From the NCBI GenBank assembly GCA_008632985.1, contig QPGO01000002.1:992001-1056000 (forward strand): DNA of 64,000 nucleotides, given 5' to 3'. The notes beneath the pieces are model-generated. The model did no database searches. It was not told the origin of the DNA and saw nothing but the letters and a program-made list of their open reading frames with translations. This DNA comes from Psammoneis japonica. Lineage: Eukaryota. Positions 10,871 through 64,000 of this stretch are shown here, piece after piece (position 1 is the first letter of the stretch; the number at the start of each line of letters is the position of its first letter). The position numbers and the translations under genes are program-made.

Positions 10871-10969
10871 TTGCCACATGCCAATGCATGATTGCATTGC
10901 CACACAAACCTTGGTTTGTTAATTTTCGTAAACATCATTTTAAACGAGAAAAACATTTCATCAGTTGAG

Positions 10970-14104: not shown

Positions 14105-14155
14105 GGACGGGGGCCGGTCAGCCCTGAGGCTGGCCTGCAGCCCTCCTCTGCCTGC

Positions 14156-35149: not shown

Positions 35150-35246
35150 TGCGATAGTCTACTGCGCCTGACAGTTCGACGGACGTATTAGATCATTAGG
35201 TACATGTAACAAATAGAGATATTCGTGTCGCGAGAGCGTACTCACT

Positions 35247-38037: not shown

Positions 38038-38109
38038 GGTTAATGCATTCGAGTTGAAAATGAATAATTTCACAGATTTTAGCGAAAATACAAAATTATT
38101 GAATAATTT

Positions 38110-41520: not shown

Positions 41521-41692
41521 ATCAAAAATACTCGAGCTTGTTTATGAAACAAGTAATCTGTGTATTCATGAATCTATAAAATATTCAGTCGCGCCATTTT
41601 TTTCTCAAAGAGAGAAAGAGAACAAAGCCAAAGAGCACAAAAAATCAAAGAAGCTCTTATTGTTCTTTTTTGACGCGCAAACTTGAAACATC

Positions 41693-42895: not shown

Positions 42896-43439
42896 AAGAT
42901 GTGTGGGCGTAGTGGTGGCATGTTCTCCGAGCATGAGTCTTTGCTTTTTCGTTGTGGGGAATTGATCAGGACAGGGCGGTCGGTGATTGCAGGTTCCAGT
43001 GAAATTCCTAGTAAACAATAGTCTATCTGTTCCGTGTGGTGCCTTGTAGTTTTATTTTGAAACGACATCCCTCCTAAAATTGTCATTCCTTCTTACAGGA
43101 CGTTGTCTCACCTAGAGGGCCGCCTCGTTTTCTTTGGTAGGGCCCTACATAACGTTTGGAGAACTGTTCACCCCCTGCCTGTGCGAAATGACCGTTTTCT
43201 CTACAATGGCTGGGCGCTAGAGAGTGCTGGCAGATGCTTCATTCGCCTCGATCTGTTGAAACAAAAGCTACAATAAGACATACAATTGCACTTTTGAAGA
43301 TGGCTATTTTATAGCTAGAGAGAGACCATCAGAGCTCTGTAGGGTCGGCACCATCTAACATGCATTTTCAAGCCCATCTTTCTTCTAATAGTAGCGCCAT
43401 GCAATCGTCAATTTTTCTTTAGCACACGCTTCCATGCGC

Positions 43440-46400
43440 TTACTTGGTCTCGTGGGTGCCGTCCAGAATGGCATAGTGTACTCCCTCTTTATCCAAAGAG
43501 GCGAGAATGTCTTCGAGCGCGGGGCGATCTTCACGATCCACCGTGCTCAAGGTCTGGTACTGTCCAGGCGTGTATTTGATAGCAAGAGTATTGGCGGCTC
43601 TCCAAGCCTTGGAATCACCAGAAACGTTTGAGTAATTTGTGCCTTTGTACACGTCCACAAATCCAGAAGTGGCGTCGAAAACGACAACCGCCCAGTCCGA
43701 AAGAATGCTGGGGGACTCAAGAGTGTATACGAGGAAATCCGAAAAGGACTGAACGTCCTCTCCGACAACGCCTTGATGAGCCCACTCTGGATGGGCCTTG
43801 ACGACCGCCGCTTCAATCGTGCGCTTGAGCTGCTGGCCAAACGCGCTAATCAAGGTCATGTCGAATTCGTGCAAGGCCAAATCGTCACCATCGGACCACA
43901 TGAGAGCTCGAATACCACGCAAGTATGACGCAGCAAGACTGAGGTAGAAACACGAGTTGGCAAGGCGCTGGTCCTTGTCTTCGCGCTTCTCGAATTCTGA
44001 ATACCTCACCTCGAATCCAATCGCCTCGAGAGCGTGCGTCATGTTAGATTTGTTGGCTGCAGCCTCGGCTCCGTGGTGTTCGAATAGATCCTCTACAGCG
44101 CGGTGGTGATCATGCAGTTCGTGGTCCCAGAAGGCTGTGCTATGTAGCTCCGGTGTTGGTTCGGATTTGGTTTCCTCGGGCTCCGTGACTGGCTGTGGCT
44201 CACGAGGTGTCTGGGAAAGAATCCGGTACGCGAGAGCCAGCTCGGCAAATTGATGCCTACAACCGCCCTTGTCGGGATGGGTCTGCAATGCCATCTTGCG
44301 ATAAGCCGAAGTAATCTCGGTTGCCGTTGCCGTGTCGTCCACTCCCAAGAGCTCGTATGCAAAGGATTCTGTTGTTTCTTTCTTCGCCACTTTTGGCTGC
44401 TTTCGAGACACAATCGAAAAGTCTAGCTCGGACATTTCCATCGCTCTCTTGATAGCGTCTTCTTCCATCTGAATTGGATCTTCCGTCGTAAGGTCGTAGA
44501 AGGTGTCGCTAATGGATGTAGCAAGTCTCATTGCTACATCTCGACCAACGTAAATATGAGTGTGAATCTCCACTCCCGCATCGGCTGCAACGGGAACGAG
44601 TTCCGCGCTTGGTGGCTCCGGCGTGACCAATGCAGTGCCGGAGGGCTCGGCTGGAGGAGCGACTTCTGGAGTTGCTGGCGCACTGTGCGTCTCTACCGCA
44701 GGAGGCGCGGCAACATCCTTGGGACCAGTCGTCTTGGAAGCTCGATGAATGGCAGCAGCCACCCGCACATTGAGCCTTTCCGAATAGGGTCTGGGCACCG
44801 CTCCGATACCTGAAGGTAACGCCTTACTTGTAACCACATGCTTCGGGGGTGGGGAGGCTTCGGCCTTGGGCTCAACCTTCTCAGCCGGCTTCTTCGCAGG
44901 AGCTTCCTTCGGTGCGCTTGTCTCGGCTTTTTTGTCGCCGTCAGGCTTCTCGACCGCCTCTTTTGGTGGCTCAGGAGCGCTGGTCTCGGCTTCTGGTTCG
45001 TCGTCGTGCTTCTCGGCCGTTTCCTTCGGTGTTTCAGAGGCGTCTTCGTCTTTTTTCTCGACAGGCTCTTCCGATGAGGTTGAAACTTCCGTATCAGCAC
45101 TGGAAACGTCGTCTTCCTCTTCTCCTTTGCTACCCTTCTCATCCTTCGACACAGTCTCCTCGCTGGCTTCGGGGGACTTAGGTTCAGTCTTAACGGGAGC
45201 TTCTGGCTCTTTAAGAGCGGCTTCAGCTTTTTCGGTCGGCTCATCTTTGTCGCTGGCATCCTTCTTGTCATCTTTTGAGGCATCATCAACAGTCGCACTG
45301 GCCGCTTTCGGGGTTTCAGAAGTACCAGTCTCCTCCTTTTCGGCAGGTTCTTCCTTGACGGGAGTTGACTCTTCGGCTGGCTTCTCCACTTCTTCTGTTG
45401 CATCTTTGGTTTCTTTCGGTTCGTCAGATTTTGTCTCAGCCTTTTCGGCGGGTTCTTCCTTGGCGGGCGCAGAGTCTTCCGCAGCACTCTCGGCCTCTTT
45501 CGGAGTCTCGGAGGGAGTTTCCACCTTCTTCGCAGGTTCTTCCTTGGCGGGTGCAGATTCTGTGGTGGCACTCTTAACCTCTTCGTCACTCGACGCTTTT
45601 TCGTCGGGTTTCTCAACTTTGACGTCAGTTTCTTTTGTTTCTTTCGGGGTCTCAGAAGGAGCTTCTGCCTTCTTTGTAGGTTCCTCTTTGGCAGGCTCCT
45701 TGTCCTCAGACTTTTCGGGTTCGGCTTCAGGTTCCGTGGGTGCTTTGGGAGTTTCCGCAGGAGGTTCAACCTTCTTGGCGGGCTCCTCTTTGGGGGTGGA
45801 TGCAGGCTCTTTGTCGGCCTTCTTTCCATCATCTTTAGCATCGTCAACCTTTTTGTCGGGCTTTTCGGTTTTCGTAGCAGCCTCCTTGGCTGGTTCGGAA
45901 GCTTTGGGTTTACTGTCCACCTTCTCGGCAGGCTTGTCGTCAGCCTTAGCGTCAACTTTCTTATCATCCTCGGTCTTCTCGTCACCCTTCTTTACAGCTG
46001 TTTCGGCCTTCTCTGCAGGCTTTTCTTCCGACTTCTTCTCACTCTCGGAGGGCTTTTCCTTGTGCTCCTTCGTATCAGGCTTCTTGGCAGTAGTTTCAAC
46101 AGCCTTCTCTTTCGCGGGAGCAGTCGTCTTGCTTGCGTCTACAGAGCCCTGGTCTTTCTTCTCTTCAGTCTTCTTTGCAGGAGCGATCTCGACGCTAGCT
46201 CTGGGAGTCTCAGTCGCAGGTTCCGCCTTTTCCGCCGGCTTCTCGGGCGCAGGCTTGGAATCCTTTGGAGCGGCTGTTTTCTTTTCGTCACTGCTCTCGG
46301 GCTTTGGCTCGGGCTTCTTTGTGCTGGGAGTGTCTTTGACCTCCTTCGCGGGCTCTTTCGCGGGAGCAATGTCTTTCGTGCTGTCAGTCTTCTCGGCGTC

Positions 46401-47351
46401 CTTCTTGTCATTAGCTTTTGGAGCATCGGAAGCGGGCTTCGCCGTTTCAGCCGGTTTCTCCGGACTCTTTTTGGCACCGGCGTCCTTCTCCTTTGGTTTT
46501 TCAGTCTTTGTATCCGCCTTGTTCTCGGGAGCTGGAGTTTTAGCACGAGTTTCGGCCTTGTCGCTTTTGGCAGGTTCAACCTTTTTGTCAGGCTTGACTG
46601 CGGGAGGCGCCTTCTCAGCCTTAGCCTCTGGAGCTGGTTTAGTCTTTTCGTCAGGCTTCTTGTCTTCTTTGGCAGTCGTCGTCTCCGGGGTAGCTTTTGC
46701 CTTTTCTTTCGGTTTTTCCTCCGTAGCCGCTTTAGCTTTTTCTTTCGTTTTTTCCTCGGTAGCCACTTTCGCCTTTTCTTTGGGTTTTTCCGGAGTTGCT
46801 TCCACCTTGGGCTTAGGCATCTCCTTCTTGCCTTCGTCTTTGGCAACGGCCGGCTCCGTTTTCTTAACTTCAACCTTCTTCTCCGGTTTCAGCGGGCTCG
46901 CCGGGGGAGCAGTCACGGGTTTGGATACTTTCTTTTCGCTGCTCACCCTCGTAATCGGCTTTGTTGCACTGCTTGTAAATATACCCGGTTTTTTCGTACT
47001 CGGGACCTTTTGTAATCGTTGGAGCCTATTCATGAACGCGGGAATAAATTCTGTAGCATCCACGTCTGTCCAGTGCTCTTCTTCTTCCAACAACGACATT
47101 CGCTGAAGCCACTCGCCGTCGACAATAGCCACATTTTGTTTCTGGCAAGTAAAAATATCGTGCTTCACATGCGGAGTCACTGCACTCTCATCTCCAACCC
47201 AGAGGGCGTGAGTCGCATCGTAAGGGGTTTTCGCAATTTGACCGCCCAGCGCTTCGATGAAGAAGCCCATTTCGCTCGCATGTTCTTTGTGGTGGTGTTC
47301 ACTCACAAGAATATACACTGCCGCCCTTTCCAAGGGCGCTTCTCCAGACAT
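43440..47351 (-). CDS. BRCT-like, long P/E/K/A linker, UIM, DnaJ and OTU-like protein (paralog 1)
   Basis: N-terminal ALGG..ATH..IVDGEWL; UIM EEDAIKRAMEMS; J domain with THPDKGG; C-terminal NSCFYLSLA..PGQYQ. Confidence 0.8.
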   Translation of the reverse strand: MSGEAPLERAAVYILVSEHHHKEHASEMGFFIEALGGQIAKTPYDATHALWVGDESAVTPHVKHDIFTCQKQNVAIVDGEWLQRMSLLEEEEHWTDVDATEFIPAFMNRLQRLQKVPSTKKPGIFTSSATKPITRVSSEKKVSKPVTAPPASPLKPEKKVEVKKTEPAVAKDEGKKEMPKPKVEATPEKPKEKAKVATEEKTKEKAKAATEEKPKEKAKATPETTTAKEDKKPDEKTKPAPEAKAEKAPPAVKPDKKVEPAKSDKAETRAKTPAPENKADTKTEKPKEKDAGAKKSPEKPAETAKPASDAPKANDKKDAEKTDSTKDIAPAKEPAKEVKDTPSTKKPEPKPESSDEKKTAAPKDSKPAPEKPAEKAEPATETPRASVEIAPAKKTEEKKDQGSVDASKTTAPAKEKAVETTAKKPDTKEHKEKPSESEKKSEEKPAEKAETAVKKGDEKTEDDKKVDAKADDKPAEKVDSKPKASEPAKEAATKTEKPDKKVDDAKDDGKKADKEPASTPKEEPAKKVEPPAETPKAPTEPEAEPEKSEDKEPAKEEPTKKAEAPSETPKETKETDVKVEKPDEKASSDEEVKSATTESAPAKEEPAKKVETPSETPKEAESAAEDSAPAKEEPAEKAETKSDEPKETKDATEEVEKPAEESTPVKEEPAEKEETGTSETPKAASATVDDASKDDKKDASDKDEPTEKAEAALKEPEAPVKTEPKSPEASEETVSKDEKGSKGEEEDDVSSADTEVSTSSEEPVEKKDEDASETPKETAEKHDDEPEAETSAPEPPKEAVEKPDGDKKAETSAPKEAPAKKPAEKVEPKAEASPPPKHVVTSKALPSGIGAVPRPYSERLNVRVAAAIHRASKTTGPKDVAAPPAVETHSAPATPEVAPPAEPSGTALVTPEPPSAELVPVAADAGVEIHTHIYVGRDVAMRLATSISDTFYDLTTEDPIQMEEDAIKRAMEMSELDFSIVSRKQPKVAKKETTESFAYELLGVDDTATATEITSAYRKMALQTHPDKGGCRHQFAELALAYRILSQTPREPQPVTEPEETKSEPTPELHSTAFWDHELHDHHRAVEDLFEHHGAEAAANKSNMTHALEAIGFEVRYSEFEKREDKDQRLANSCFYLSLAASYLRGIRALMWSDGDDLALHEFDMTLISAFGQQLKRTIEAAVVKAHPEWAHQGVVGEDVQSFSDFLVYTLESPSILSDWAVVVFDATSGFVDVYKGTNYSNVSGDSKAWRAANTLAIKYTPGQYQTLSTVDREDRPALEDILASLDKEGVHYAILDGTHETK

Positions 47352-48201: not shown

Positions 48202-51200
48202 TCACGACTCCTGTACAACGTAAACGATGCAAATGACGGAGAGGAGAACGATGATGGATTTCGCAACAATACTGCTGGGAATACCAGCAGGCCCACGCTG
48301 AACACCTGCTTTTGGTGGCGAATCGGCGGAAGTTTCCGAGCTGGACCCCGTCTCTCCTGTAGCAGCCGTTTCTTCGTCACCCTCAACCACCGTTTCTGCT
48401 TTCTTCACGCTGGGAGCCGTTTCATTTACAGACTCGGAAGTGTTTTCAACCTTTTCAAGTGGCTCCTGTGAAGTCGGTGTTTCAACCTTTTCGTTTTCCT
48501 CATCCGCAATTTCTCCTTCATCGATTGTAGCCTCCTTGGTCTCCGGAGCGGTTTCAGCCTTCTCGCTGGGCCTATCAGCGGGAGTCGGTTCCTTTTCCTC
48601 ACGCTCCGCCATAACTGGTTCTTCCTTGTTGGCTGTCATATCGCTAGCAGCTTTGTCGCCCTCGATGGTCTTTGGGGAAGCTTCATCACAATCAGACTTC
48701 TTCTCCTCTTGCTTTTCAACACTGGCATCCAGCTCAGCAGTAGCGTTAGTAGCCTCACACGCCTTGTTAGACTTCTCTGATGTTTCTTGTTCGCTGTCAC
48801 CCTTAACGTCTAGTTCGGGGGTCTCTTTCACGTTATCTTCATCCTTGTCTACCGACTCTTCTGTTGCAGTAGTGGTTGAACTCTCACCATCCACCTTCGC
48901 TTCCGGTTTTGAGTTAGACGATTCGACTTCCTTTGCCGACTCTTCTGGAGAACTCTTTTCTTCGCATTCGGCCTTTTCAGCAGGAGGCTTGATGGTGGCG
49001 GTAGCTTCCTCAACAGGTTTTGTGGCGGCACTTGTAGCCTTTTCTGCCACCTCCGATTTCTCAGTCTCCTTGGTAGGACCCTCGGCATCCGGCTTGACTT
49101 CTTCGACGGCCTTCTCGGGAGAGCTATTTCCTTCACTCTCGGAGTTATCAGCATCGGCGGACGATCCGACACTAGCAGACTCCTTGGCAGCCTCGGCCTT
49201 CTCGACGGATGACTCGCCACCGGTGAGCTCAACGGCTGTCTCAGTAATCTTTTGTTCATTGTCAGCACGCTTAGCCTCGTCGGGTGCGTTTTCGTCTAGA
49301 TCCTTGGCAGCTTCCGCCTTCTCGGCGGGTTCCTTGGAAGAGCTTGGTCCAGTCTTCTCGGGTTCCTCTGATGGTTCGTTGGCAGCAGGCTCTGAGGCTT
49401 TCTCAACAGAATTCTCTGGAGAACGCGTTTCGGCATTCTCATTCTTGCTCTTTTCAGTCTTCTCGCGCTCCTCGGACGGTTCATCGGAAACAGGCTCAGA
49501 GGCTTTCTCGTCGGGTTCTTCTGCCGAACTCGTTTCGAAATTCTCATCCTTTGTCTTTTCAGTCTTCTCGGGCTCCCCACATGGTTCATCAGTAACAGGT
49601 TCAGAGTCATCTTCTGGCTTCTCGACGGGTTTCTCTGACGAACTCGTTTCTGCCTTGCCATCCTTGCTCTTGTCTGTCTTCTCGGGCTCCTCGGATGATT
49701 CATCGGAAACAGCCTCAGACGCAGCTTCGGCTTTTTTGACGGGTTTTTCTGGAGAACTCGTTTCGGCATTCTCTTCCTTGGTCATTTCCGTCTTCTCGGG
49801 CTCCTCTGCTTCATCTGTAATAGGCTCAGAGGCGGATTCGGTGTTCTCGACAGGCTTCACGGGCGAACTTGTTTCAACCTTCTCATCCTTTTCGACAAGA
49901 TTTTTCGTTGCAGTTGGGTGCGTCTCCGCGGCTGGTGCGGGACGTTCAATGCCACCTTCTCTCTTGTCAATTGGATTATTCGTGGCTGACTCGTCGTTTT
50001 TGGATGGCGTCTCAGTAGCTGCAGCAGCAGGAGGCGCCGAAGTATCACTTACTTTCTCTACAGACTTCGGTGGAGAACACTTCTCTTCTATCTCTGTCTT
50101 CTTTCCAGCTTGTTTTTCAATATTTTGCAGCGACTCAGCTGCAGGAGGCGCGGGGGCAGTTTCGACCTTCTCTGCGGGCTTATTTGAAGGATTCTTTCCC
50201 TCTGTCTCATCCTTCTTCTCCACCGGAGCTTCCGTTGCAGCTTGCCTATTATCAGAAACAGGCTTGGGAGATTCAGACACAGCTTGAGCCTTCTCATTGA
50301 GCTTCTCTGAAGATCTCTTTTCCTCTTTTTTGGCGTCTTTGGTTGGCTTTTCCGTTGTCGGAGTAGGTGCGGGAGGCTCCGAGATGGCTTCAGGGTTCTC
50401 GACAGGCTTCTTTGGTGCGCTCTTTTGCTCCTTCTCAACATTTATTTCGGCTGGCTTTTCTGTTATAGCTCCAGATGTCTCCGCTGCAGCATCGACCTTC
50501 TTAGGGGAGCTATGTTCCTCCGTATCAGTCTCCTTCTTGGTTGGCATTTCTGTATTAGTCAGCTTCTCAGAAGGTTTAGCACTCGTACCCTTGACCTCCT
50601 TGGAAGCGGCCGTCTCTGGAGTACCATTTTTCTTTTCTTTTGGGTTCTCCGAGGTTGATACAGCATCTTCCTTGGGTTTTGAAACGTCGCTAGTGGAGTC
50701 TTTCTTATTGGAAGGTGGCTTCGTACCGTTACTCTTGATTTCGACGTCGTCAGGTTTCACGGAAATCGCCGCAGCATCTTTCGTATCCTTTCGGGACGCT
50801 CTTTCACTTTTGACAGCTTCCAAAGGCTTCTTATTATTTGAGAATAGACTAGGCTTCGTAGCAGACGCCTTTGGACGACGATGGAGCTTGGTGACAAAAC
50901 CGGGAACGTACAAGCTACCGTCGATGTCTGTCCAATGCTCCTCGTCTTCCAAAAGCGACATTCGCTGAAGCCATTCCCCATCAACAATGGCCACGTTTTG
51001 CTTTTGGCATGTAAGGACGTCATGTTTTACTTGCGGAGTGACTGCGCTCTCGTCACCAACCCATAAGGCGTGGGTGGCGTCGAATGGTGTTCTCGCAACT
51101 GCTCCTCCAAGAGCTTCAACGTAAAAGCCCATTTCGCTTGCATGTTCGTTGTGGTGGTGCTCACTCGTTAGAATATAAACAGAGGCATTTTCTAGTGGTG

Positions 51201-51216
51201 ATTCGTCGTACGACAT
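48202..51216 (-). CDS. Paralog 2: BRCT-like domain, acidic linker and C-terminal hydrophobic anchor
   Basis: First about 110 aa closely match paralog 1; ends in IIVLLSVICIVYVVQES; no J domain. Confidence 0.75.
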   Translation of the reverse strand: MSYDESPLENASVYILTSEHHHNEHASEMGFYVEALGGAVARTPFDATHALWVGDESAVTPQVKHDVLTCQKQNVAIVDGEWLQRMSLLEDEEHWTDIDGSLYVPGFVTKLHRRPKASATKPSLFSNNKKPLEAVKSERASRKDTKDAAAISVKPDDVEIKSNGTKPPSNKKDSTSDVSKPKEDAVSTSENPKEKKNGTPETAASKEVKGTSAKPSEKLTNTEMPTKKETDTEEHSSPKKVDAAAETSGAITEKPAEINVEKEQKSAPKKPVENPEAISEPPAPTPTTEKPTKDAKKEEKRSSEKLNEKAQAVSESPKPVSDNRQAATEAPVEKKDETEGKNPSNKPAEKVETAPAPPAAESLQNIEKQAGKKTEIEEKCSPPKSVEKVSDTSAPPAAAATETPSKNDESATNNPIDKREGGIERPAPAAETHPTATKNLVEKDEKVETSSPVKPVENTESASEPITDEAEEPEKTEMTKEENAETSSPEKPVKKAEAASEAVSDESSEEPEKTDKSKDGKAETSSSEKPVEKPEDDSEPVTDEPCGEPEKTEKTKDENFETSSAEEPDEKASEPVSDEPSEEREKTEKSKNENAETRSPENSVEKASEPAANEPSEEPEKTGPSSSKEPAEKAEAAKDLDENAPDEAKRADNEQKITETAVELTGGESSVEKAEAAKESASVGSSADADNSESEGNSSPEKAVEEVKPDAEGPTKETEKSEVAEKATSAATKPVEEATATIKPPAEKAECEEKSSPEESAKEVESSNSKPEAKVDGESSTTTATEESVDKDEDNVKETPELDVKGDSEQETSEKSNKACEATNATAELDASVEKQEEKKSDCDEASPKTIEGDKAASDMTANKEEPVMAEREEKEPTPADRPSEKAETAPETKEATIDEGEIADEENEKVETPTSQEPLEKVENTSESVNETAPSVKKAETVVEGDEETAATGETGSSSETSADSPPKAGVQRGPAGIPSSIVAKSIIVLLSVICIVYVVQES

Positions 51217-51812: not shown

Positions 51813-53680
51813 TTAACCAGCACCGTCAACAATAGCATAAAACACACCCTCCTTGTCGAGTGAAGTGAGAATGTCATTGAGCGTTGAGCGCTTCTCGGGA
51901 TCCGAAGGGACCAACGCCTGGTAGTGCCCGGGTGTATATTTGAGGGTAAGCGTGTTTGCCTTTCCCCATGCCTTGTCATCATCAGCAACACTCGAGTAGT
52001 TCGTACCCTTGTATACGTCTACAAAACCAGATGTTGAGTCAAAGACGACAATCGCCCACTCTGAGAGCAGTGTGGACGACTCAAGAGTGTAAACGAGAAA
52101 ATCAGAAAACGCCTGAACCTCTTCGCCGACCATGCCTTGGTGCGCCCACTCTGGATGAGCTTTTACCACCGCTGATTCAATGGTACGCTTAAGCTGCAGG
52201 GCTGTTTCACCAATCAGGGTCTTGTCCAATTTCTTCAACTCGGGGTCGTCATCTTCGGTCCCAACGAGAGCTCCAACTCCACGCAAGTAGGACGAGGCCA
52301 AGCTGAGATAGAAGCACGAATTAGCAATGCGTTGATTCTGCTCATTACGGTTGAATGCTCCTGCGTCCTTTGTAACGAGGCCCAATGAGTCCACAGCATG
52401 AGCCATGTTGGATGTGTTGACGTCAATCATCGCACCGTGGTGTGCAAACATATCTTCCACGAGTTTTCGGTGATCTTGTAACTCATTGTCCCAATAGGCC
52501 GTACTGTGAATAGTCTTGCTTTTTTCAGTTTTGGCCTCCTCTTCAACAAACGTCTTTTCCTCGCGAGAGGTGGATTCGAGAAGAGATCTGTATGCTCGCG
52601 CCAAGTTAGCAAACTCGTTCGCACAACCACCCTTGTCTGGATGAATCTGTAACGCTTTCTTCCTGTAGGCTGAGCGAATCTGTGCTGGTTTCGCCGTCTC
52701 GGTAACACCCAAGGTCTCGTATACGCAAGGATCGGGCGCTGCACTTCGTCCCTTATCAACATTCTCTTGAGAAACGATCGAGTAGTCCAAGACGGACAGT
52801 TCAATCGCCCTTGCAATCTCGTCTTGTTCCATCTTTTCTGGATCCTCCATTGTGAGCTTGTAAAAGGTCTCACTGATAGAAGTCCCTAGCCTCAACGGCG
52901 TGTCCACGCCAATGTTGTACCTACCGGCTGCAGGAACAAGTTGGCCACCAGCTTGCTCAGGTATAGGCACATGTGCCGATTGAGGAGACACGGATGCGGC
53001 AATTGGAACCAATTGTGCTTCTCTAAACGGTGTAGCACCTGGAGGATCAATCTTATAGTCTGTAGAGACAACAAGATCACTAGAAGGCCCGCTCGTTTTG
53101 GAAGCACGAGCGAGCACAAGGGCAAGCTGCTCGTCAAGCCCGCTTTCTTCACTTGAAACTGCAGGAGGATCTTCAGACTTAGCCTCAAGTAGATCTTTCT
53201 CTTTGACTTCAGGTTCGGGTTGAGAAATAGCTTCTGATAGATCTTCCTCCTTGACTTCTTGTTTGGGTTTTGGCTTTTCTGCGGGCTTGGCTGGAAGGCT
53301 TTCTTTCTTCAATTCGGTCAACGCTTACTCTTAGTTTTTGGACGTTGTTGAAGATTGTATACAGCGGCGGGAATAAACGGAGTGATGTCAATATCTGACC
53401 AGTGCTGGTCTTCTTCCAACACTGACATTTGTTGAAGCCAGCCCCCGTCCACAATGGCCACGTTAAGATGTTGACATTTCAGCATGACATGTTCGACATG
53501 CGGAGTGACTGCATTTTCGTCGCCCACCCAGAGGGCGTGGGTCGCATCGTATGGAGAACCCGCGACCTGTCCACCAAGGGCCTCGATGAAGAACCTCATT
53601 TCCTCGGCATGCTCATCGTGATGGTGGGGGCTTGAGATGATGTACACAGATGCTCTGAAGAGGGGAGAATCAATTGTCAT
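51813..53680 (-). CDS. Paralog 3: BRCT-like, short linker, UIM, DnaJ and OTU-like (frameshift near 53325)
   Basis: ORFs 53318-53680 and 51813-53321 together are colinear with paralog 1; IHPDKGG, NSCFYLSLA, PGHYQAL. Confidence 0.78.
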
Positions 53681-54099
53681 TTTACTTGTCAACTTCGTCT
53701 TTTGCTTCGTCGAGCTACAGATGCGACTCTTTAAAGAGGGGTCGCCTTACGTGCAGTGCTCAAGGGGCGAGGTGTTAAAGGGGCGACGGTTCTTCTTGCT
53801 CTCAGGGTTGCTGTTCTTGGTTGTTTCGTTTTTTCGTTGAACAGCGAACAGCGGTGACACGAAAAATCTTTGTACTGATAGCTGGAGGTAAGGTTATGGG
53901 TCCAGGGCGGCCGGTCCCTGCTCGCTTGTTTTAGCTTGAATTCTGTCATTGTTTTAGCGTGCTTCACCGTGGTGAAAACCGCATGCCACAAGTTTGTAAC
54001 GGGGTTTCCGCCATGGGACTTACATCAGAATTATGTTCTTCATGGTGTGTCAAATGATCGACGTGATTGTCCCATGGCAGAAGACTGATTTTTTAGAAA

Positions 54100-55590
54100 G
54101 CCAATGACCACCAGCAAGGAGCGAGCGAGATGAGCGGTCTTTGATTGTTCAAAGGTTGACCAAGAATGGGAGCCAACACCTGGCCCACACCATGTTGGCA
54201 GCACAGGCATGCTCATGAGTGACAGCTTGGTGGGCCTCTGCAATTAAGGTGCAGAGAGACTGTTGTGGAAGCCATGCCTGGGGAGGTGGACAGTGCACTT
54301 GCCAGGAGGGGCTTTGTTTTTGTTCTTGTGGCGCAACATGTGACAGAGTCACACAAGAACAAGGGCAGCTTTCACACAATTCAGAGATGCCACTGTTGCA
54401 GGCTGGCAGCTTGGAGGAGGATGCCAGTCACTGGGCCTGTCATGGTGACTGAGCCCTTTCCTTTGCAACTTGCAAGCTGGTGTGTGTGTTTTGTCACAGC
54501 CCGCATGGTGGGCTGCATTTTCCCGCACATGTCAACCATGCTGCCTGCCACTGCCTCCTCTTGGAGCATCATGCCAGCCAGTTCAAGATCCAAATCATTG
54601 ATGACCCCACCCACCTGAGTTGGCATCTTGTGTGGCGCAGCTTTGAAGATCTGTGCCGGAGGCCGTCAGCGAGAAATCTCGTCATTTGGCCCCAGCAGCA
54701 AGGCACCTCTGAGCTCCAGTTTGGCAGCACTGGTGCAGGCACACCACAGAAGTGTTCTTTGGCAGCAGAAAAGAGTTTGGCCAGTTGTGTGGGGCATGGC
54801 ACCATGTCTGAAGCTGGCATTTGGCACCTGAGTCTGTGAAAGACATGGGAGAGTTTTGCAAGTTTGACAACATCAGCTGAAAAACACAAAGCATCAATGA
54901 TCCAACCCAGGATGACCCTGATGGCCAGCCATTTGGTCCCCCCCCCCCCCTCCTTCAAGAGCTTCTCAAGGGATGTGGTTTCTCTGCAGCAGTGGTCATT
55001 GGCTCACATGTTGAGCAAGCAGGAGAGCTGGTGGTTGTTGACATGGAGGCATTCTTGATGGCACAGATGATTGAGCCAAGCCTTGCAACCTTCTTGCATG
55101 ACTCCAACATTGTTGTCTGGGTGAAGAACATCAAAATGTTGGAACTGCCTTCAGCTCTCAGCAGCATCTCTTCCATTGAATTGACTTTGGATCCATGAGC
55201 TTTTGCAAATGGCTGGCATGTGTTGGTTGGTCAGCAGGCAGAACATTGACTTGCAATGCCTTGTCTCATGGGCTGCCACCTGCTCCAGTGGGTGCACTGG
55301 AGGAGGACCCCATGCAGCAGCTGTGCATGCATTGGCCAAATCCGTTGGTGCCCACAAAAAAGCAAAACAGACTTTTGACCCAGCCCTTGGACAGAGCCAA
55401 TGAAAAGGTGATGAGAGGCTCTTTGACCAGACCTTCCAGAGATGCCAAACCTGGTTTGGGTGTGTCAGCAGGCTTCAAGCCCACCCCAGAGAACCCGTTG
55501 GCATGATCCAGCTTGATGAGATAAAAACTGGAGATCTTGTGTGGGACTCGACCCAGCATGCATCTGAATTGCATGGCTTCTGGCATCTGT
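54100..55590 (-). mobile_element. Older eroded copy of the Ngaro RT-RNase H-YR region
   Basis: Colinear relics PEAMQF, KLD..GF..VGLKP.DTPK, PPVHPLEQ, ILGWIID, DLELAG..LQE, GKGSVT, VWARCWLPFL. Confidence 0.85.
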
Positions 55591-56156
55591 GAGTGGTTAA
55601 ACAAAAAGTGGAAGCAGATCGGGCAGACAATGAGAGGTGGAGTAGAAGGAAAGAAAAATGTTGGGGACACATTGCGATTGTCAGGTGATGGACAATTGTT
55701 TGCTGTTATGGACAAAGATGATTAGAGGAGTGCGCGAATGACACGTTTGTTTCCTCAGCGCGAGTTTATGCGAACGTCTGTGACAACAATTCAGGACGCA
55801 AGGAATGGGCAGGGAAAATAATTAGAAGCGCTGTCAACGAACATCTGGGAAAGCGAGAGCGAATCGCCCTCTCTGGATGTGGAAGGCTCCTCGTCGTTTC
55901 TTCCGAAAGGAGAGAACTGCGCAAAAGCTTGAGAGGTGCTCAATCCCTTAAAAAGTTGAGAATTCACACGTTATCAGAATGGGATTTACAGAACGAAAGC
56001 TACAAAAACAACAACAGCTTAAAGGTTGTCTCAAGCCTGCTGGCCGATTTTAAGTAGAATTCACTCAAAACGTACTCTACATGTTGCCTTAGTTTTGCAT
56101 TAAATGTGCTTACCAGCTGACTGGGTGGTTAGCGTTCTCCTGCTCTCTCGCTCTCT

Positions 56157-56708
56157 CTAGCGCTTGGACTTGCCACTAAGGCCAACTTCCATGAGTACGT
56201 TCCCGGAAATAGCAACGCTAGCCGCAAGTCCCGCTGTGTACGCCAAGGCACGAAAGGGTTGCTTCTGAACGAAGTAGTAAAGGAAGAAATGCGACAAGCG
56301 CGCGTATACAAAGGTCGTGACGGCTGTCGGAGCCCAAGCTGGTAGAGTGGCAGTGGCATACGGCCAGAGAGTAGCCACGGCAAAAAAGAATGGCTCGTTT
56401 TCGGTCGCGTTGCGTTCCATGGACTGGAGACGGTACAGATCATTCTCACTTGTACCCGCCTTGACAAAGCAACCCATGGCGTAGTAAAAAAGGTTGAAAA
56501 AGCCTCCTCCGGTTGGATCGACCCACTTGGACGGATTGCTCTCGGGTGTTCCGTCGCCTCCTTCCTTGTCGGGAATGTTGCCGTACTTTCCCGTGAGGCC
56601 ATTTGCGAGACGGACTCGAATCACCATTACATGATTAACGCACACTTTGACCGTCAGAACAGCGGCAGCCCATGCTAGAGTCTTGTTGTACGATTCCGTG
56701 CTGCTCAT
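56157..56708 (-). CDS. MAPEG family protein (microsomal glutathione S-transferase-like)
   Basis: TM helices with R...RN..EN..FF and F..AR..H..Y motifs. Confidence 0.8.
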   Translation of the reverse strand: MSSTESYNKTLAWAAAVLTVKVCVNHVMVIRVRLANGLTGKYGNIPDKEGGDGTPESNPSKWVDPTGGGFFNLFYYAMGCFVKAGTSENDLYRLQSMERNATENEPFFFAVATLWPYATATLPAWAPTAVTTFVYARLSHFFLYYFVQKQPFRALAYTAGLAASVAISGNVLMEVGLSGKSKR

Positions 56709-56999
56709 GATGATAATGATGACTACGAAGCTGGCGAAAGGTGACTGCAACAAGACGGCGGCCGCGACTAGCTAGAGAGAGAGGGAGAGTGGAGAGAGTG
56801 ATGAATAGAGGAAGTGAACAAGAGTTGTTGATGTCAACGTTCGAACGTTTCGTGGAGCGAAATCTTCTTCCCGCGATGGGAGAGCAACGGACGTACGACA
56901 ACGGACGTGAAAGAATTTTGCATCATACATGCATTCGTTCATGATTGCTTCAGCGGCCACCGCCGTTTCGAACAGTGCAGTTAACTCCGGCTCTAACTC

Positions 57000-59900
57000 T
57001 AGTTTGTGGCAGAGGTCCATTTGCAGAGCTCAAGCTCCAGACTCAATCACCACTGGGGTGGGTGGGAGGATCCTTTTAAAGCTGTCTGCCAGCTGTTGGT
57101 GCAACAAAACAAAAAACGACAACAGAGAGGACGACCTCGTCAGCCGAGAGAGACATCGGCAATTGGCGGTCAGGCAAACAGCAAGCATTTGACATCTGTC
57201 CTTTGTGGGACAGACTTGAGCCAATCAACAGCCCTTGCATCATCTTCCCCATTCTGCAGTGGCTGCCTCCACTTCCAGCGGCACAGCCAAGAACGGCGCC
57301 CCAGCTCTGACTCCAGCCAGCTGGAAGCAGAGGTCCATTTGCGGAGCTCCAGACCCAATCACTGGGAGCCTGACACACAGGCTCCCAGGCCCAGCTTTGA
57401 TGAGGTTGCCAAAGGCAGACCAAACAAATTCGTGTGGGAAGGCAACATGGGCAGGAAGGGAAAGGTCTCAGCACAAGGGAGCTTCTTGGTTGTTGATGCA
57501 TGAGCTGAGTTTTCACCTTGAGAGAGCCCCCGGGATAAGAAACTTTGCATGGCAGGCTCAGCTTTGATGCAAAGACAGCACATTGTTTTGTCAGAGAAAG
57601 TGTCATTGTCCAATGAATGGGGGCAAGACTTGGCTGCACTGGTCGCACGGCACTTCATCAGGCTCATCATGATGTGGGGAAATCATGAGCCACTGTTGTG
57701 AAAAAGACATGTTTCATTCAAAACACACCAGTGTTTAAATGCTGTTTGCCTGGACAACATGGCTGGCATTGTTTGTCATGCAGGCAAGGCTCAAAAACTT
57801 CTTTGCAGTCAATGGCAGAGTGTGTTTTGCCCAAATGGCTCATGGTTTCAGACCAGCATCTGGCATCTTTGGCATCACAGATTGTGGGACATGGGGCACC
57901 ATCATCATCATGTGGATTGCAAATGGCCACAATGGCTGTCTTTGACAAAAGAAGCAGGAGAGAGAGTGCTCTCCTGGAGAAAAAAACCCCTCTCAGCTGG
58001 CACCACTGTTGAGCTGTGTGGCAAAGGTGGTTGCTGCTGCTGAAGAAAAGGGTGCTGCTGCTGCTGCTGCTGCTGCTGGAAACAAAGGGTGCAGCAGAGA
58101 TTCACCACAAAATTGTGCTCACAAGAAAAGATTCAGACCATCAACATGTCAATGAGATTGAAAAAATCCCTGCCATGCTTTCCTCAACAGAGACATGATG
58201 CTCCAGGAGCCAGCCCTGGGCAGGACTCTGTGTGACATGGGCCCACAAAATTCTGCATGGGTGCAAGCTTTGCAGTTCATGCACCAGGCAATGGGAACAT
58301 GTTTGTTTTCAACACCAAATGAATGACCACACAATTGCCCCTCTTCATGTTGGGTGTTTTTGAAAACCTGCTTCTGTTCCAGCGCACGCTCTGCACACAT
58401 TGAAAAATTGCTTTGGAGACAAGAAAACATCAAAAGTGGGTGAATGGATTGCCCAACAATTGGGCTGCAAAATGACACAAAATGCAGCCAAAGTCATGCA
58501 GAAATGTGTGTGCATGTCACATGGTGCATGATAAAAAATGTCAGCATCACAGTTCAGCCAGTGCTGCAAGGCCCCACCTGGAGCTCGGGGGCACCCAGAG
58601 CTGCCAACAATCCCTTGGAATGGCCAAGCCTTGCAGCACAAAAGCCTCACAACAAAAGGCTCAGTTTTTGCATGTTGTCTCACCTGAGCAAACTCCCTGC
58701 TTCTCACTCAGATGGACCCACACGGAAGGAGAGCCAACATTCGTGGCAAGGGTTTTTCAACTCATTGTGTCCTGGAGCCTTCTTCTTGGCCCCAGCTTTT
58801 GCAGTGCCTCTCAGAAAGAGACTGTCACCATTGGCTTTTGTGAAAGTGCAAGAAAGAGTGTGCTCTCAAAGATTGAAAGTTGACTGTGTGAGGATGTCAT
58901 GCAGGAGGCTGAAAACAAGTCTGAGTTTGAAACTCTTTTTTAAAGTGGTGCTGCTTTGTTTGTGATCAGCGTGGTTGAACAACATGATGACCCCACATGT
59001 GGAAAGTGGAGGTGAGTTTCAATGCAAAAGATTTGTCAATTTTTGCAGCAAGAACAAGAGATGAAGGCAGCTGCAAAACTTCCCTCTTCCTCCATCTGGA
59101 GGTGAGGTCTTGGGAGCTCACACGCATTTGTCTGCTGCCAGTGTGCCCTGTTCATTGTCATTGCTGCAAGCCAGACATTCATTGCAGTTGACACTTTGCC
59201 AAACTGTCCCTGCCACAAGACATCAAGACCCACCTCATGCCCCTCCTTGAGCAGCACTGCCACTTCACGTCACCCCTGGATGGGTTGGCAGCAACAGATC
59301 TGACATTGAAGCAACTCCAGCAACTCTTGCATCAGCAAACTTTGCTCAGGTCCTGGAGTTCTTGGGGCAGCTGCAGCAAACACTGACAGTGGACTCAGCT
59401 CGGGCACTGGGTGGAGCAAAGCAATTCAAGCAACTGTGCCACCACCAGAGCAGAGGAGCCGACTCAAGCCCCCCAGCCCCCCCCCCCCCCCCAGTGGACA
59501 TGCTGGCCCAACTCCAGCAACCACAAAGAGCAGCAAACTCAGCTCAAGCCCTGGTTGCAGTGGAGCTCTGGATTTGGCAGAGTGACTCCATCAGCTGTTG
59601 CCAGCAGCAAGCTTGTGTCACATTGGCGGCCTCCCATGCCCAACCAACATCTGCGCTGGCAGTTGGGTGTCCCACACGCCACCTGCTGGGCTGAGCCTGG
59701 GCTCAGACATTGATGGATGGAAAGATGGATCTCCTCCCTCCTGCTGCATCTCTCAGGCTGGCTCCAGCGGAATGGGCACAAGTCCTGAGTTGGGTGCTGG
59801 CTCGCTCCTTGCAGAGAGCATGTGGGAAGAAGCAGCGCACCAGCACCCAATCCTGGCATTGGCAAGTGCTGGCTGTGCGCTGCAGCTGGCTGGCCGCACT

Positions 59901-60200
59901 TCTCTTGTGACGTGCTGACAAAGCCTCAGATGCAGCAGTTTGTTGTGTTTTTGTCAATGGCGCTGCCATGATGACGACAAGTGGGGGGGGGCTCATCACT
60001 TTCCACCCGAACAACCATGTGAGAAGGAGGAGAATTCAGACAGACGATTCCTCACCAGGGCCGCCCGCATGTGGGCAATGCATTGTGGTGCCCTTGGGTG
60101 TGTTTCGTGCACAATTCTTCGCAGAAAAGTTTTGCGTGTGTAGATTTCATGCCAGTGACAAGTGCGGTGACTGGCGGTCACCTTGCCTCTTGAGAGTCAG
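57000..60200. mobile_element. Heavily eroded TpA/CpG-depleted repeat(s), possibly hAT-like in part
   Basis: Composition as in the other islands; possible BED-finger relic (AIC..PC....SHL) at 57718-57948 on the minus strand. Confidence 0.4.
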
Positions 60201-60413
60201 TCAATGCAGTAAAAAGAGCGCCCTCCCAAAGCAGTGCGGTCGACGCGGCGGCGGGTGTGGCGGTTATTCCACTGCGATCGGCGGACGCGGCACACTTTTT
60301 CTCAAAGACGAACGAACAGTTGCACAGCATTGGCGGCAACAGCTTTTGGAAAATCGCTCTGCCCTCTGCCATGGCGTTTATTTGCATTGCTACTAGAAGT
60401 ACTTACAACAAGC

Positions 60414-61880
60414 ATGAGTAAATTAGAGAGACTCCTCTTGATGAGCTTGCTGGGTTTTGCCTTGCTTCAGCTGCTTTCCTTTTACAACATTCACCATGCT
60501 ACCAACGTGCGAGTTGGTGACGACATGCAAATAGAAACAAACAGAAATTCATACAAAAACGACAACAATCGGTCTTTGATGGATTATTCTCCTTCAAGAC
60601 AAGAATCAGCCTCGGCCTGTCTCTTGATCATGGATGACAATCACTACTTGATTGAATGGATTGCCTATCATTATCACGTGTTGAATTTGCGCCACTTGAT
60701 TGTCGCCACTGACCCCAAGAGTAAAACGTCCCCCAGTCGAATCTTGAATCGCTGGAGAAACTACATTCAAATTGAAGAATGGACCGATGACGATTTTTGG
60801 CCAAGCAATACTACCAAGAAGTTAAGAAAATATGGCGGAGCGAGCGGTGAATTGAGAAAGCATCGTGCTCGACAAGGGCTCTTCACGTTGCAGTGCTTGC
60901 GGCATTTCAAGAGAAAGGACAAATCGTGGGTCCTACTCACGGATACTGACGAATATACAACCATTAACCCAAAATTTACACCAAGCGTCCTTCCGCAACA
61001 ACAGCAACGACCAATAATCGAACAGCCCGGGTCGGTCTTGACCTTTCTTAATGAAATGTTGCTTCCCGACAAAAAGGTCAAGGAGATTGACTATCCATGT
61101 GTGTATATGTATCGACATCAATTCAGCAACAAGGAGAGTCCACGCGACAAGGTCCAAGACGGGGTTCCTTCTTCACAACTGAATCCCTTTCATTTCCAAA
61201 CACTCCGTTGGAGATATTGTGATTGGATTGATTTATGGCACAATGCGACGATTGCCCATTGCAAGGTAACGAGGAAGTTGCCAGGAAAAACAATGATTGA
61301 TCTAAAGAGATTGAGATTATTGGATTTGTATCATCCCGCCAATGCTGGCAATCCACACTTTCCCCTCGAGGGACTGTGCCAATCGACGTGGCCCAAGCTG
61401 GCAACCTCCCCACTGGCGGTTCATCACTACATTGGCACGTTGGAACAGTGGCTGTACCGAACCGGAGATACCCGTGGCAACGCGTATCGAATGGCCTTGT
61501 ATGACCACACTAACGACTTTACAGGTAAGTCTGAAAATGATAATGTCCGATTGTGGCTCAAGGGTTTCGTGGACAATGTGGGTCAAGCGGAAGCGGTGCG
61601 ATTGTTGCAAGGAGTTGGACAACTCGAACCACTGCCGCAACAACAAAAACTCGTGGAGATTTCAAATCAAACTTCTAGCAATACTACACAAGACGTTTAC
61701 AAGGTGGGAGAAAGAGTTCAAGGAAACTACAAGGGAGACGGATACTGGTTTTGGGTTGACATTTTACGAGTGTATCCTGGAGGCTATTACAACATCTTGT
61801 ACGATGATTGTTCCCAAGAATTGGGAGTGCCCGCATCCATGCTTCGACGAACAGGCAAAGTGGATGAGCTAGAAAGGTAG
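60414..61880 (+). CDS. Type II membrane GT-A glycosyltransferase (GT92-like) with C-terminal Tudor/Agenet-like domain
   Basis: N-terminal anchor; SACLLIMDDNHYLIEWIAYHY, WVLLTDTDEY (DxD), GKT.ID, HHY; tail YKVGERVQGNYKGDGYWF..I......YNILYDD. Confidence 0.75.
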   Translation: MSKLERLLLMSLLGFALLQLLSFYNIHHATNVRVGDDMQIETNRNSYKNDNNRSLMDYSPSRQESASACLLIMDDNHYLIEWIAYHYHVLNLRHLIVATDPKSKTSPSRILNRWRNYIQIEEWTDDDFWPSNTTKKLRKYGGASGELRKHRARQGLFTLQCLRHFKRKDKSWVLLTDTDEYTTINPKFTPSVLPQQQQRPIIEQPGSVLTFLNEMLLPDKKVKEIDYPCVYMYRHQFSNKESPRDKVQDGVPSSQLNPFHFQTLRWRYCDWIDLWHNATIAHCKVTRKLPGKTMIDLKRLRLLDLYHPANAGNPHFPLEGLCQSTWPKLATSPLAVHHYIGTLEQWLYRTGDTRGNAYRMALYDHTNDFTGKSENDNVRLWLKGFVDNVGQAEAVRLLQGVGQLEPLPQQQKLVEISNQTSSNTTQDVYKVGERVQGNYKGDGYWFWVDILRVYPGGYYNILYDDCSQELGVPASMLRRTGKVDELER

Positions 61881-62079
61881 ACATTGTCTTGAGAATAATG
61901 TAGCTGGCTTTCCAGAAAGATGCTTGCCATTGTCGAAATGCACAAAAAATCTGAATAAGTTGAGGCGCCACCTTTTGGCTTGTTCGGGTCGTCGGAAGCC
62001 CTCGAGATTTTCCTGTGCACAGAACTGTCATTTCGCGTGGTTATGGGCAAGAAGGGGCTGCGTGTGATTTAATTTTGAG

Positions 62080-63500
62080 GTGCTGGTNGGTTTACCTTCC
62101 ATTCACACCTGCCAGTCCTGAACAACCCTTCTCTTGCTTGCCGACATGTCAAGCTCATTGTCCGAGTGGCAAACTCTCTGCTTTCGTCCCAGTGTCCAAA
62201 AGTGTGAAATTGAGTCAGTCTTTGTTGAAGGCAAGCCTCTTCCTCCTTGGAAGCCATGTTTTTGCTCCAGACGTTGTGCTGTTCTTGAACCAATTTCTGA
62301 ATGTGACTGTCCTTTGCTGTTGAAGTGTGGATGCTGTGTGTCCAGTGCCAAAGAAAGCAACAAACCCTTTCACATGTCTCATTTCATTTCAACCAGTTGT
62401 CTCCAGTGGGCATCACTGCAAGGTGGTGCAATGTCTGGCCAACTGCACTTGCTTCTGCTGCATCCCCAAGTGTGTGGGCTGGCTGGCACCAGCATTGCCA
62501 GGCAAAGGTGGGCTAAAACAGCACTTTGCACCAGTTTTTTTTTTTTGTGTTGACAAGCCCTCCTCTGGAGTGAGAGAATCTGCTCCCGTTGATTGATGAT
62601 TTTCAACCGACAAACACCAGCATTCTCTTGGCATCCCACTCTATGATGCAGTGGCAATGGTTTGTTTCACACAATGGCTTTTTTAACCTCAATTTCTTTT
62701 GGCAGCTTGTGAAAGTTGTGATGTTTGCCCATCCCAGCTCCAGCTTGCACCGATGATCAAAAGGACAGGTGGGGGTGACGGCTTGCTCCATGCTCTCAAC
62801 TCTTGACATCAAGCTCCAACAAGCCTTAACCCCTGCCAATGTTTCCATGATGTCTGTCATCATGGCCATGTCTTTTGCCTTGGGAGCATCATGGTTTTGC
62901 TGCATCACAGCATTGCCAACAACAGATGACGACACAGCATGGTGTGTGGCTCATTGCGCTCAATTGCAAACAAAGCCTGGATCATGACAATCCCAAAGAG
63001 ATCACTTTGGACATGACTGTGCAGCAGAAGTGGAGCAACATAGAGTCCAGCAGGAAACCATCATGATCAGACATTGGGAAACCTGTGAAAAATCTGCATG
63101 TTCTGATGTGCGCCCACAAAGAGATCCATCAACCCACTGAACAGCACCGCACTTAGACAGGGAGAGAGAGATTCTGTGGTCTGCTTGCACTGGCTGTGGT
63201 TGAGTCATTTTAGCATTGTCATGATGCTCTTTCAAGGCCGAGACTTTGTGCTCTCCTCAGTTTAAAACAAAGAGAGAAGCTCCTTTTTTGGGACTTCAGA
63301 TGCTGCAGTGACGTGTTGGGGCAAGCAGCTGCATTGTGCTTCCACTTCAGTGCAGAATGTGGCACAAGAGTTTGAGTTCCCAAACACAGCTTTTTTGTCA
63401 CAAAAGACATTGTGATCCCAGTGGTGCTTGCCAACTGATTCTTTGTCCTTCTAGCGTGCAGCCAGCAAATCGCACAATTTCATCAACTGAGCAATGATTG
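62080..63500. mobile_element. Eroded TpA/CpG-depleted repeat, possibly a hAT transposase relic
   Basis: Composition; plus-strand CVAHCAQL resembles the hAT CxxH motif; starts next to an ambiguous base at 62088. Confidence 0.35.
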
Positions 63501-64000
63501 ATCAGCAACAGTGGCAGGGGAGTGGAAATCCATGGATCTGCCCCTGCCCCGCACCACACTGTATGTCCTCTGAAGTTACACACAAATTTTGGGTTGTAGG
63601 TTATGACAGACATTTCCTCCATTCCTTGTGCGAACATGACAGCCTACACTCTACAGGAAATATTCCAAACAAGGCGAGAACAAAACAATTGTGTTTCTCT
63701 CGTGTAGCTAAATTAAAAGCAATGTCAAGAAACGGTAATACCTGCTTCCAATTAAACATCCAGAAAATCCCCTTGTGTTGTTCTGCTGTCATAAGCAGGG
63801 GGTTGCATTCTTCCCTGATTCCCACTGGCGTGTCCAGCCGAAAAATTACGCATTTCATTCTCCACTTCACGAATAAAGGCCAAACTGCCCCCAGCCGGAG
63901 AAAAAACCACTGTAAGTCGTGGACATCGAATCATATCAAAACAGCACGATCGATCTGGTTTTCCCGCAGACCGTGGCCACATAAAAAATGGCGTGGAGGG

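Follow-up and report, generated by a model that had tools for sequence, protein, structure and literature searches.

Strand-wise, flank-dependent erosion of TpA in discrete stretches of a diatom genome

A 64,000-nucleotide stretch of the genome of the diatom Psammoneis japonica (assembly GCA_008632985.1, contig QPGO01000002.1, positions 992,001 to 1,056,000; the window, numbered here from its first letter) contains discrete regions that have lost nearly all of their TA dinucleotides by conversion to TG and CA. The TAs that survive in these regions are sorted by their flanking bases, and the sorting follows a rule that applies to each strand separately: an A within 5'-TAB-3' (B = C, T or G) is lost, whereas 5'-TAA-3' keeps its A. 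CG is also lost from part of the eroded DNA, and this loss ignores the flanks. We consider it fairly probable that selected stretches of diatom DNA are hit by a strand-wise process that converts TpA to TpG or CpA at the DNA level by reading three bases, and that CpG decays separately.

A scan of observed/expected dinucleotide ratios (O/E) in 500-bp windows revealed stretches that are nearly without TA and CG and have TG and CA doubled. Islands were delimited as 200-bp windows with TA + CG ≤4, a definition that ignores flank context, which gave five islands of 1.5-2.7 kb each with a pooled length of 10,462 bp (Table 1). Together they retain 37 TAs (O/E 0.06) and 86 CGs (0.13), and TG and CA rise to 1.86 and 1.78; the background values of TA, CG, TG and CA, taken from the rest of the window, are 0.53, 0.93, 1.13 and 1.22. 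Pyrimidine-purine steps account for 0.239 of all dinucleotides in the islands and 0.236 in the background, and because this share is unchanged the loss of TA and CG did not proceed by transversions. TG and CA are about equal in each of the five islands. A block of minus-strand sequence at 18501-25262 is eroded at TA (O/E 0.09) with CG mostly kept (0.64), and its sense strand shows a slight excess of TG (549) over CA (473). Ultraviolet damage is ruled out as the cause, since TC and GA steps are not depleted in the block (O/E 1.18/1.16 compared with 1.15/1.11 in the background).

Erosion is confined to discrete regions that lie beside normal DNA, and their edges are sharp at single-site resolution. 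At one island edge 13 TAs occur in 53716-54032, followed by 2 TAs until 55521. The islands are intergenic, and within 8.8-27.9 kb they flank a retroelement and the block of dead genes. The metagenome loci fetched with an MCM8 alignment (80 loci, 707 kb), which are mostly distant MCMs with a best identity of 47% and so serve as a control for specificity only and not as a test of diatoms, contain zero 1-kb windows with TA O/E < 0.2 and TG/CA > 1.5.

Protein alignments establish the direction of the change in the block. Its open reading frames (ORFs) encode 2 tyrosines in 1928 residues (0.1%) together with 5.0% cysteine and 4.9% histidine, and the corresponding values for ordinary genes are 2.2, 1.4 and 2.4%. 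The block belongs to a family of 46 unannotated representatives, and its ORF at 19796-20929 on the minus strand aligns with the homolog P0121 at 54% identity. All seven aligned tyrosines of P0121 are replaced in the window, four by Cys and one each by His, Phe and Val, and the alignment keeps 12 of 12 Phe and 4 of 4 Trp. The columns that are Tyr throughout the family are C and H in this ORF. The replacement of Tyr by Cys or His is expected because the change from TAY to TGY or CAY is one transition at TA. Searches with a neighboring block ORF (20956-21936, minus strand) gave no homolog match, and a BMT5-like methyltransferase lead for the homolog P0122 was sub-threshold (score 0.75) and was not used. 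Another homolog of ORF 19796-20929, the public 242-residue predicted protein P0136, has zero Tyr, 5.4% Cys and C/C/H at the conserved Tyr columns; judged from its sequence, P0136 may be another hypermutated copy, listed in a public gene catalogue.

A segmental duplication polarizes the change in noncoding DNA. Positions 1-2546 and 33355-35950 are 89.5% identical and each carries a gene for an NADPH-oxidase-like protein with a C-terminal EF-hand, and both coding parts are intact. TA differences are balanced in the coding part (7 compared with 7). Downstream of it, beginning at the stop codon, copy 2 has 41 TAs; copy 1 reads TG or CA at 22 of these sites, and the reverse case occurs once. The eroding flank of copy 1 leads into the nearly TA-free interval 2501-3000 (TA O/E 0.07). 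Extension of the alignment past ~2546/35950 with transition-tolerant scoring gave a signal not above that of shuffled sequences.

Contigs from a public DNA sequencing run agree with the window in the islands, differing by 0-3 letters per 640-3450-bp piece at a depth of ~55-60. They also contain a second diverged copy of part of one island (Table 1), and its CA/TG double differences are what is expected if a single ancestral CG or TA decayed separately in each copy. The TA at 58532 (GATAA) is CA in three of the contigs, which is the product predicted by the flank rule.

The flanks of the surviving TAs were then compared with those of TAs in uneroded DNA. A sequence-only reading of 54040-60200 had noticed that the remaining TAs sit almost exclusively in TTA or TAA, and all eight of the sites that it named are present, none displaced by more than one base. 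This interval contains 61 TAs, 52 of them within the uneroded stretch of the MAPEG gene (55640-57167) and 9 in the two eroded parts. Eight of these nine have a T before or an A after the TA, and the exception is GTAG at 60141 at the edge. The second interval of that reading, 9923-11050, gave the same result with nine of nine TAs flanked by T or A. Pooling the islands gives 5 VTAB sites with neither flank, 20 with one T or A flank (hemi-flanked) and 12 TTAA sites among 37 TAs, compared with 820, 497 and 61 among the 1378 TAs of the background (chi-square 71, p = 3.7e-16). The deficit of VTAB and the excess of TTAA hold against three references by binomial tests: the background (p = 1e-8 and 4e-8), a first-order Markov model of the islands themselves (7e-6 and 7e-5), and the flanks of island TG and CA (6e-8 and 4e-7). 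The block repeats the pattern with 7, 23 and 10 sites among 40 TAs (p = 1.8e-11). Across all 128 of the 500-bp windows, the VTAB share drops stepwise with increasing TA depletion from 0.61 to 0.59, 0.41, 0.22 and 0.11. Uniform survival in all NTAN contexts once composition is controlled, the outcome that would have spoken against the original observation, is clearly not what the data show, as the flank bias stays under the composition controls.

The magnitude of the loss in each context was determined from the set of all pyrimidine-purine steps (TA, TG, CA and CG) sorted by both flanks, a set that transitions do not leave. The TA share of V_B steps falls from 0.187 to 0.0035 in the islands, a 53-fold loss. 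Steps with one T or A flank fall from 0.136 to 0.021 (6.4-fold), and T_A steps do not drop (0.084 compared with 0.081). The block gives losses of 19.5-fold at V_B flanks, 4.2-fold at one-sided flanks and none at T_A flanks. With noncoding background as the proxy, TTAA is down ≤1.5-fold and VTAB is down 58-fold. TAAA accounts for 45 of the 87 surviving TAA strands compared with 194 of 593 in the background (odds ratio 2.2, p = 7e-4), which indicates that longer A runs protect further. These results bear out the proposed target near VTAB, where the loss is strongest, and the proposed protection in A/T tracts, where TTAA is undepleted and an A at +2 adds to the effect.

The losses were fit to a Poisson model that covers all 16 contexts and assigns one hazard to each strand, determined by the nucleotide that follows the A. 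The fitted hazards are -0.02 ± 0.09 for TAA, 2.20 ± 0.24 for TAC, 1.67 ± 0.19 for TAT and 1.34 ± 0.17 for TAG, and a uniform loss of TA is rejected (chi-square 108, 3 degrees of freedom, p = 2.6e-23). In the pooled islands and block 77 TAs are left compared with 654 expected, and TTAA stands at 22 compared with the 23.1 expected under zero loss (12 and 12.5 in the islands, 10 and 10.5 in the block). The two-strand arithmetic was calculated separately for each class of region. In the islands, the 53-fold loss of VTAB corresponds to 2h = 3.97, or ln 53/2 = 1.99 per strand, and the 6.4-fold loss of hemi-flanked sites corresponds to h = 1.86. Half of the VTAB log loss in the block is 1.49, and the hemi-flanked value is 1.43. 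The VTAB and hemi-flanked losses are as predicted by two independent strand hazards.

The strand rule also makes a prediction about products. If only the TAB strand is attacked, VTAA gives VCAA and never VTGA, and TTAB gives TTGB and never TCAB. The islands contain 560 VCAA + TTGB and 330 VTGA + TCAB steps, compared with 557/333 under the model and 503/387 under symmetric loss (p = 5.7e-5). The block has 358/218, compared with 368/208 and 332/244 (p = 0.014), and the pooled counts of 918/548 lie close to the 925/541 of the model (p = 5e-6). Both changed hemi-flanked sites in the polarized duplicate flank gave the predicted product. Flank sorting, the strand model and the product test support the enzyme-like specificity that the sequence-only reading had suspected; the enzyme itself is putative.

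Several points weigh against this interpretation. The expected counts stand in for those of the ancestral islands and were taken from background sequence elsewhere in the window. The polarized events of the duplicate flank with unchanged flanking bases are 1 of 8 TAA strands and 13 of 38 TAB strands, with a baseline transition rate of 0.059, which is a trend and not significant, and the sole changed TAA strand in this set is a clean TTAA to TCAA change. If ambiguous flanks are kept the counts become 3/13 and 19/69, and the unpolarized arms of an inverted repeat give 2/10 (TAA) and 6/24 (TAB). The retroelement region at 12001-18000 is TA-poor and yet lacks the flank bias, with VTAB making up 27 of 53 TAs, 11 of them CTAC; we suggest that selection has retained these TAs as tyrosine codons of a young element. 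The sequencing run whose contigs agree with the window may derive from the sample used for the assembly. A Pfam scan of the 109 island and block ORFs at E ≤ 0.01 returned one chance-level zinc-finger match and nothing else, and with zero real domain matches a 'foreign' origin of the islands is unproven. Finally, the survivor counts are fit about equally well by a context-uniform loss of TA combined with fast re-creation at TCA, and the product asymmetry is expected under re-creation as well.

This steady-state alternative holds that TA is lost in every context and re-created by C>T changes at 5'-TCA-3' (TGA>TAA on the other strand) through an APOBEC-like or TC-biased activity, so that the survivors are mostly young. 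The TA/(TG + CA) ratio of the islands (37/2376 = 0.016) is near the gain/loss ratio of the duplicate flank (~1 gain compared with 22 losses of 41), and hemi-flanked sites resemble TTAA in the ratio of TA to its TCA-type source (23/218 compared with 10/94 in the block, 20/330 compared with 12/132 in the islands). The one clean loss of TTAA to TCAA also fits. Re-creation, however, requires TTAA to arrive by coincidence at the ancestral level in both classes of region, and a second coincidence by which the product counts equal the number of lost TAs. The TC/GA ratios of the block carry no trace of a TC-targeted flux, and a copy-1 TA lies opposite a copy-2 CA only once in the polarized flank. The hypermutable region described in the chlorarachniophyte Bigelowiella natans had a single GC>AT change among 211 mutations (bioRxiv 10.64898/2026.01.13.699255). 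We consider the steady state unlikely.

The loss of CG is a separate process. CG survival in the islands is uniform over the 16 contexts (p = 0.53), and because CG loss is blind to the flanks in the same islands, the flank effect belongs to TA alone. The block lost TA with CG largely intact, which shows that the two processes are separable, and suggests that TA erosion is the faster step. By analogy with the CpG decay of methylated transposable elements, the conversion of island CG to TG or CA whatever the flank is probably the deamination of 5-methylcytosine, a reaction that is unable to remove TA. Transposable elements of diatoms are CpG-methylated by DNMT5a (PMC9998398; PMC2806351). The TA-free zone at 59896-60140 outlasts the CG-free zone by ~250 bp and reaches the start of the glycosyltransferase-like gene, so the two erosion domains have different edges.

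The mechanism that we propose would act on selected stretches, namely the islands between genes, the block of dead genes and the flank of copy 1 of the duplicate. Within them the A of 5'-TAB-3' would become G on each strand alone, with C as the most prone third base (TAC > TAT > TAG), and the A of 5'-TAA-3' would be spared, TAAA more so. Read from the other strand, the same change would be T to C in 5'-VTA-3'. TTAA would then be immune, TTAB and VTAA would be eroded via one strand, and VTAB would be stripped from both. Flank-blind decay of CpG to TG or CA would overlap with the TpA process in the oldest islands. Of these elements, the sequence shows the direction of change, its confinement to regions, the flank rule with its strand logic and the independence of the CG loss; the agent and its purpose are inferred. 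The simplest agent would be a base-flipping enzyme that converts the A of TAB (or the T of VTA), most simply a DNA adenine deaminase like the one proposed for B. natans, and the process would serve to disable unwanted DNA.

The process acts on DNA and on both strands, because TG and CA are about equal in the islands and erosion has extended in situ into sequence flanking a cellular gene. The same two observations bear on editing at the RNA level, in which transcripts of a retroelement would be A-to-I edited at UA by an ADAR- or ADAT-like enzyme, reverse-transcribed and inserted already mutated. A-to-I editors typically favor a 5' U (10.64898/2026.01.13.699255), the window contains a retroelement with a weak RVT_1 match (E = 0.003), and the sense strand of the block has the TG excess described above. 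Both strands were hit in all five islands, however, and one copy of the duplicated cellular gene had its 3' flank eroded where it lies. The scan of ORFs and Pfam domains found in the islands no long ORFs, no transposable-element or viral domain, and no remains of a reverse transcriptase or integrase, and the repeat search found no terminal repeats or target-site-like repeats around them. RNA-level editing is therefore very unlikely. Selection would explain the pattern if TA and CG were purged as harmful in RNA or chromatin and TTAA or TAAA words were kept for a function, such as polyadenylation-like signals or binding sites. UpA and CpG are reportedly avoided in many cytoplasmic RNAs (PMC3829696), and some surviving TAs resemble signal words (GATAAA, TTTAAA). 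The depletion is nevertheless far weaker in genes than in DNA that lacks ORFs and domains, the loss of all but two tyrosine codons from the block would not be allowed in a working gene, and TTAA stands exactly at its background share and not above it. We give selection even less credence than RNA editing.

An assembly artefact, in which modified bases (5-methylcytosine at CG, and modified A or T at TAB) are misread as T or G by a long-read base-caller and the islands would chart modification instead of sequence, is the least probable of the explanations considered. The pattern is motif-specific and confined to domains, and nanopore assemblies are known to carry such base-calling errors where motifs are methylated. 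Within the islands, however, the window is matched by the contigs of the public run, including a 315-kb contig that implies accurate reads, although the run is possibly the assembly's own data. The second diverged copy of part of one island in these contigs also argues against misreading.

The long ORFs of the window encode eukaryotic proteins, including the NADPH-oxidase-like protein with EF-hands, an MCM, a DnaJ protein and a MAPEG-family protein. The MCM8-like ORF at 36283-38073 (minus strand) has its closest named relatives in the pennate diatoms Nitzschia, Pseudo-nitzschia and Phaeodactylum, at 50-61% identity. The coordinates of the eroded regions and their uneroded counterparts are collected in Table 1.

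Table 1. Eroded regions of the window, their reference copies and the uneroded control
Feature	Coordinates	Strand	Remarks
Island	8857-10941		TA 9, CG 12; includes the second interval of the sequence-only reading, 9923-11050
Island	25263-27894		TA 11, CG 18
Island	54095-55620		1526 bp; TA 3, CG 14; between DnaJ gene and MAPEG gene
Island	57168-59895		2728 bp; TA 4, CG 25; between MAPEG gene and glycosyltransferase-like gene
Island	62071-63562		TA 10, CG 17
Block, TA lost and CG mostly kept	18501-25262 (6.8 kb)	-	Chain of tyrosine-free ORFs; formerly coding-like
ORF with 54%-identical homolog P0121	19796-20929	-	Inside block 18501-25262
NADPH-oxidase-like gene 3' flank, copy 1	1796-3026		Aligns with copy 2 to ~2546
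Paralogous copy 2, TAs kept	33355-35950		Reference state for polarized events
Second diverged copy or haplotype in read contigs	59063-59934		Four adjacent CA-vs-TG double differences
Uneroded MAPEG-family gene	55621-57167	-	Internal control; 52 TAs in 55640-57167

A self-BLAST of the window found no similarity between islands. Other contigs of the public run match portions of the islands at 80-95%, which indicates that the islands hold repeated pieces, and it is plausible that the islands derive from foreign DNA or transposons. The retroelement-like unit occupies 11793-17786, adjoins the block, has a GC content of 61% and is Tyr-poor (0.4%). Its short terminal repeats pair 11888-12032 with 17491-17624 and 17365-17498 with 17649-17779, and the ORF with the weak RVT_1 match carries a YVDD motif. 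The GC-rich stretch 12001-18000 has O/E values of 0.22 for TA and 0.87 for CG.

Other units of the window show partial depletion or a different composition. Inverted-repeat arms at 38108-38642 and 40929-41521 (~74-84% identity) enclose ~2.3 kb, of which the inner 38501-39500 is partly TA-depleted (O/E 0.26-0.30); the unit is possibly a decaying DNA transposon. The 400-residue ORF at 41693-42895 has no real Pfam match and 2 Tyr, and in its second half (42001-43000) the TA O/E is 0.15-0.17 with normal CG, so this ORF may be a further gene eroded at TA only. The minus-strand ORFs at 43440-47351 (1303 residues, DnaJ domain) and 48202-51216 (1004 residues) contain internal tandem repeats and have an extreme AT skew (to -0.6), and their TG O/E of ~0.5-0.7 is unlike that of the islands. 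Over 53000-64000, a second run of the same sample (X2) yielded contigs over gene bodies only and none over the islands; this pattern looks transcript-like, although the run is not recorded as RNA.

The closest known system is the TpA-only hypermutation of two integrated viral regions in mutation-accumulation lines of B. natans (Mettrop et al., bioRxiv 10.64898/2026.01.13.699255). In that report 210 of the 211 mutations in one region are A>G or T>C, the mutation list has 231 entries, the de novo rate in clonal lines is ~1000-fold over baseline, and a DNA adenine deaminase is proposed as the agent. The likeness lies in a TpA-only change to TpG or CpA on either strand in discrete regions. The differences are that B. 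natans is a chlorarachniophyte with integrated viral DNA, whereas the window comes from a diatom and its islands have no viral or transposable-element domain matches; that TA O/E is 0.06 in the islands compared with a Rho of 0.45 in the viral region; and that CpG is co-depleted in the islands. The words 'flanking', 'context', 'trinucleotide', 'CpG' and 'diatom' are absent from the main text of the preprint, its figures and supplements aside. With the same limit on the preprint, the literature search met TpA hypermutation in that report only and found nothing on TpA erosion in diatoms or on a dependence of such erosion on flanking bases. The strand-wise three-base rule appears to be the new part, as TpA hypermutation itself has been described once, in another algal lineage.

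Fungal repeat-induced point mutation (RIP) is likewise a regional, dinucleotide-specific decay of unwanted DNA in place that uses transitions only, but it runs in the opposite direction. RIP turns CpA into TpA and so enriches TpA, whereas the islands lose TA and gain CA and TG. As to the duplication that triggers RIP, the islands have no similarity within the window, and only the noncoding flank of one copy is eroded in the 89.5% identical duplicate, with balanced TA differences in its coding part. RIP changes are C>T (PMC7296669), and the DNMT4 enzymes of diatoms are related to RID (PMC9998398). The adenosine deaminases ADAR, ADAT2/3 and TadA resemble the process in converting A to G with U or T directly 5' of the edited base, a 5' T that every TpA target has by definition. 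The 3' order C > T > G >> A in the window is unlike the 3' preferences of the first two. ADARs prefer a 3' G, and to our knowledge ADAT2/3 edits A34 of tRNAs with G, C or A, never U, as the following base. The natural site of TadA is UACG, which matches the top-ranked TAC.

Local, sequence-specific hypermutation of DNA is a known genome defence in fungi, where RIP provides it, and cytosine deaminases fill this role in animals. TpA-specific hypermutation was first reported in 2026 from one alga, and the window shows its signature nearly complete in a diatom. Islands free of TA and CG yield long spurious ORFs because only TGA stops remain, and eroded DNA enters gene catalogues as tyrosine-free 'proteins', of which P0136 may be one in public data. 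The rule TAC > TAT > TAG >> TAA can be checked in the published mutation-accumulation data and with candidate deaminases on oligonucleotides, and if it is true it would be a biochemical fingerprint for identifying the enzyme. Diatoms are among the most important groups of marine primary producers. As a tentative proposal that we put at somewhat below even chances, they may possess a DNA-editing genome defence that mirrors fungal RIP, in which A to G conversion at TA(C/T/G) on single strands silences chosen DNA through the loss of tyrosine codons and TA signals and leaves TTAA structurally out of reach; since the TpA-only process has been observed at work in a chlorarachniophyte, this defence may be old and shared across the algae of the stramenopile, alveolate and rhizarian (SAR) lineages.

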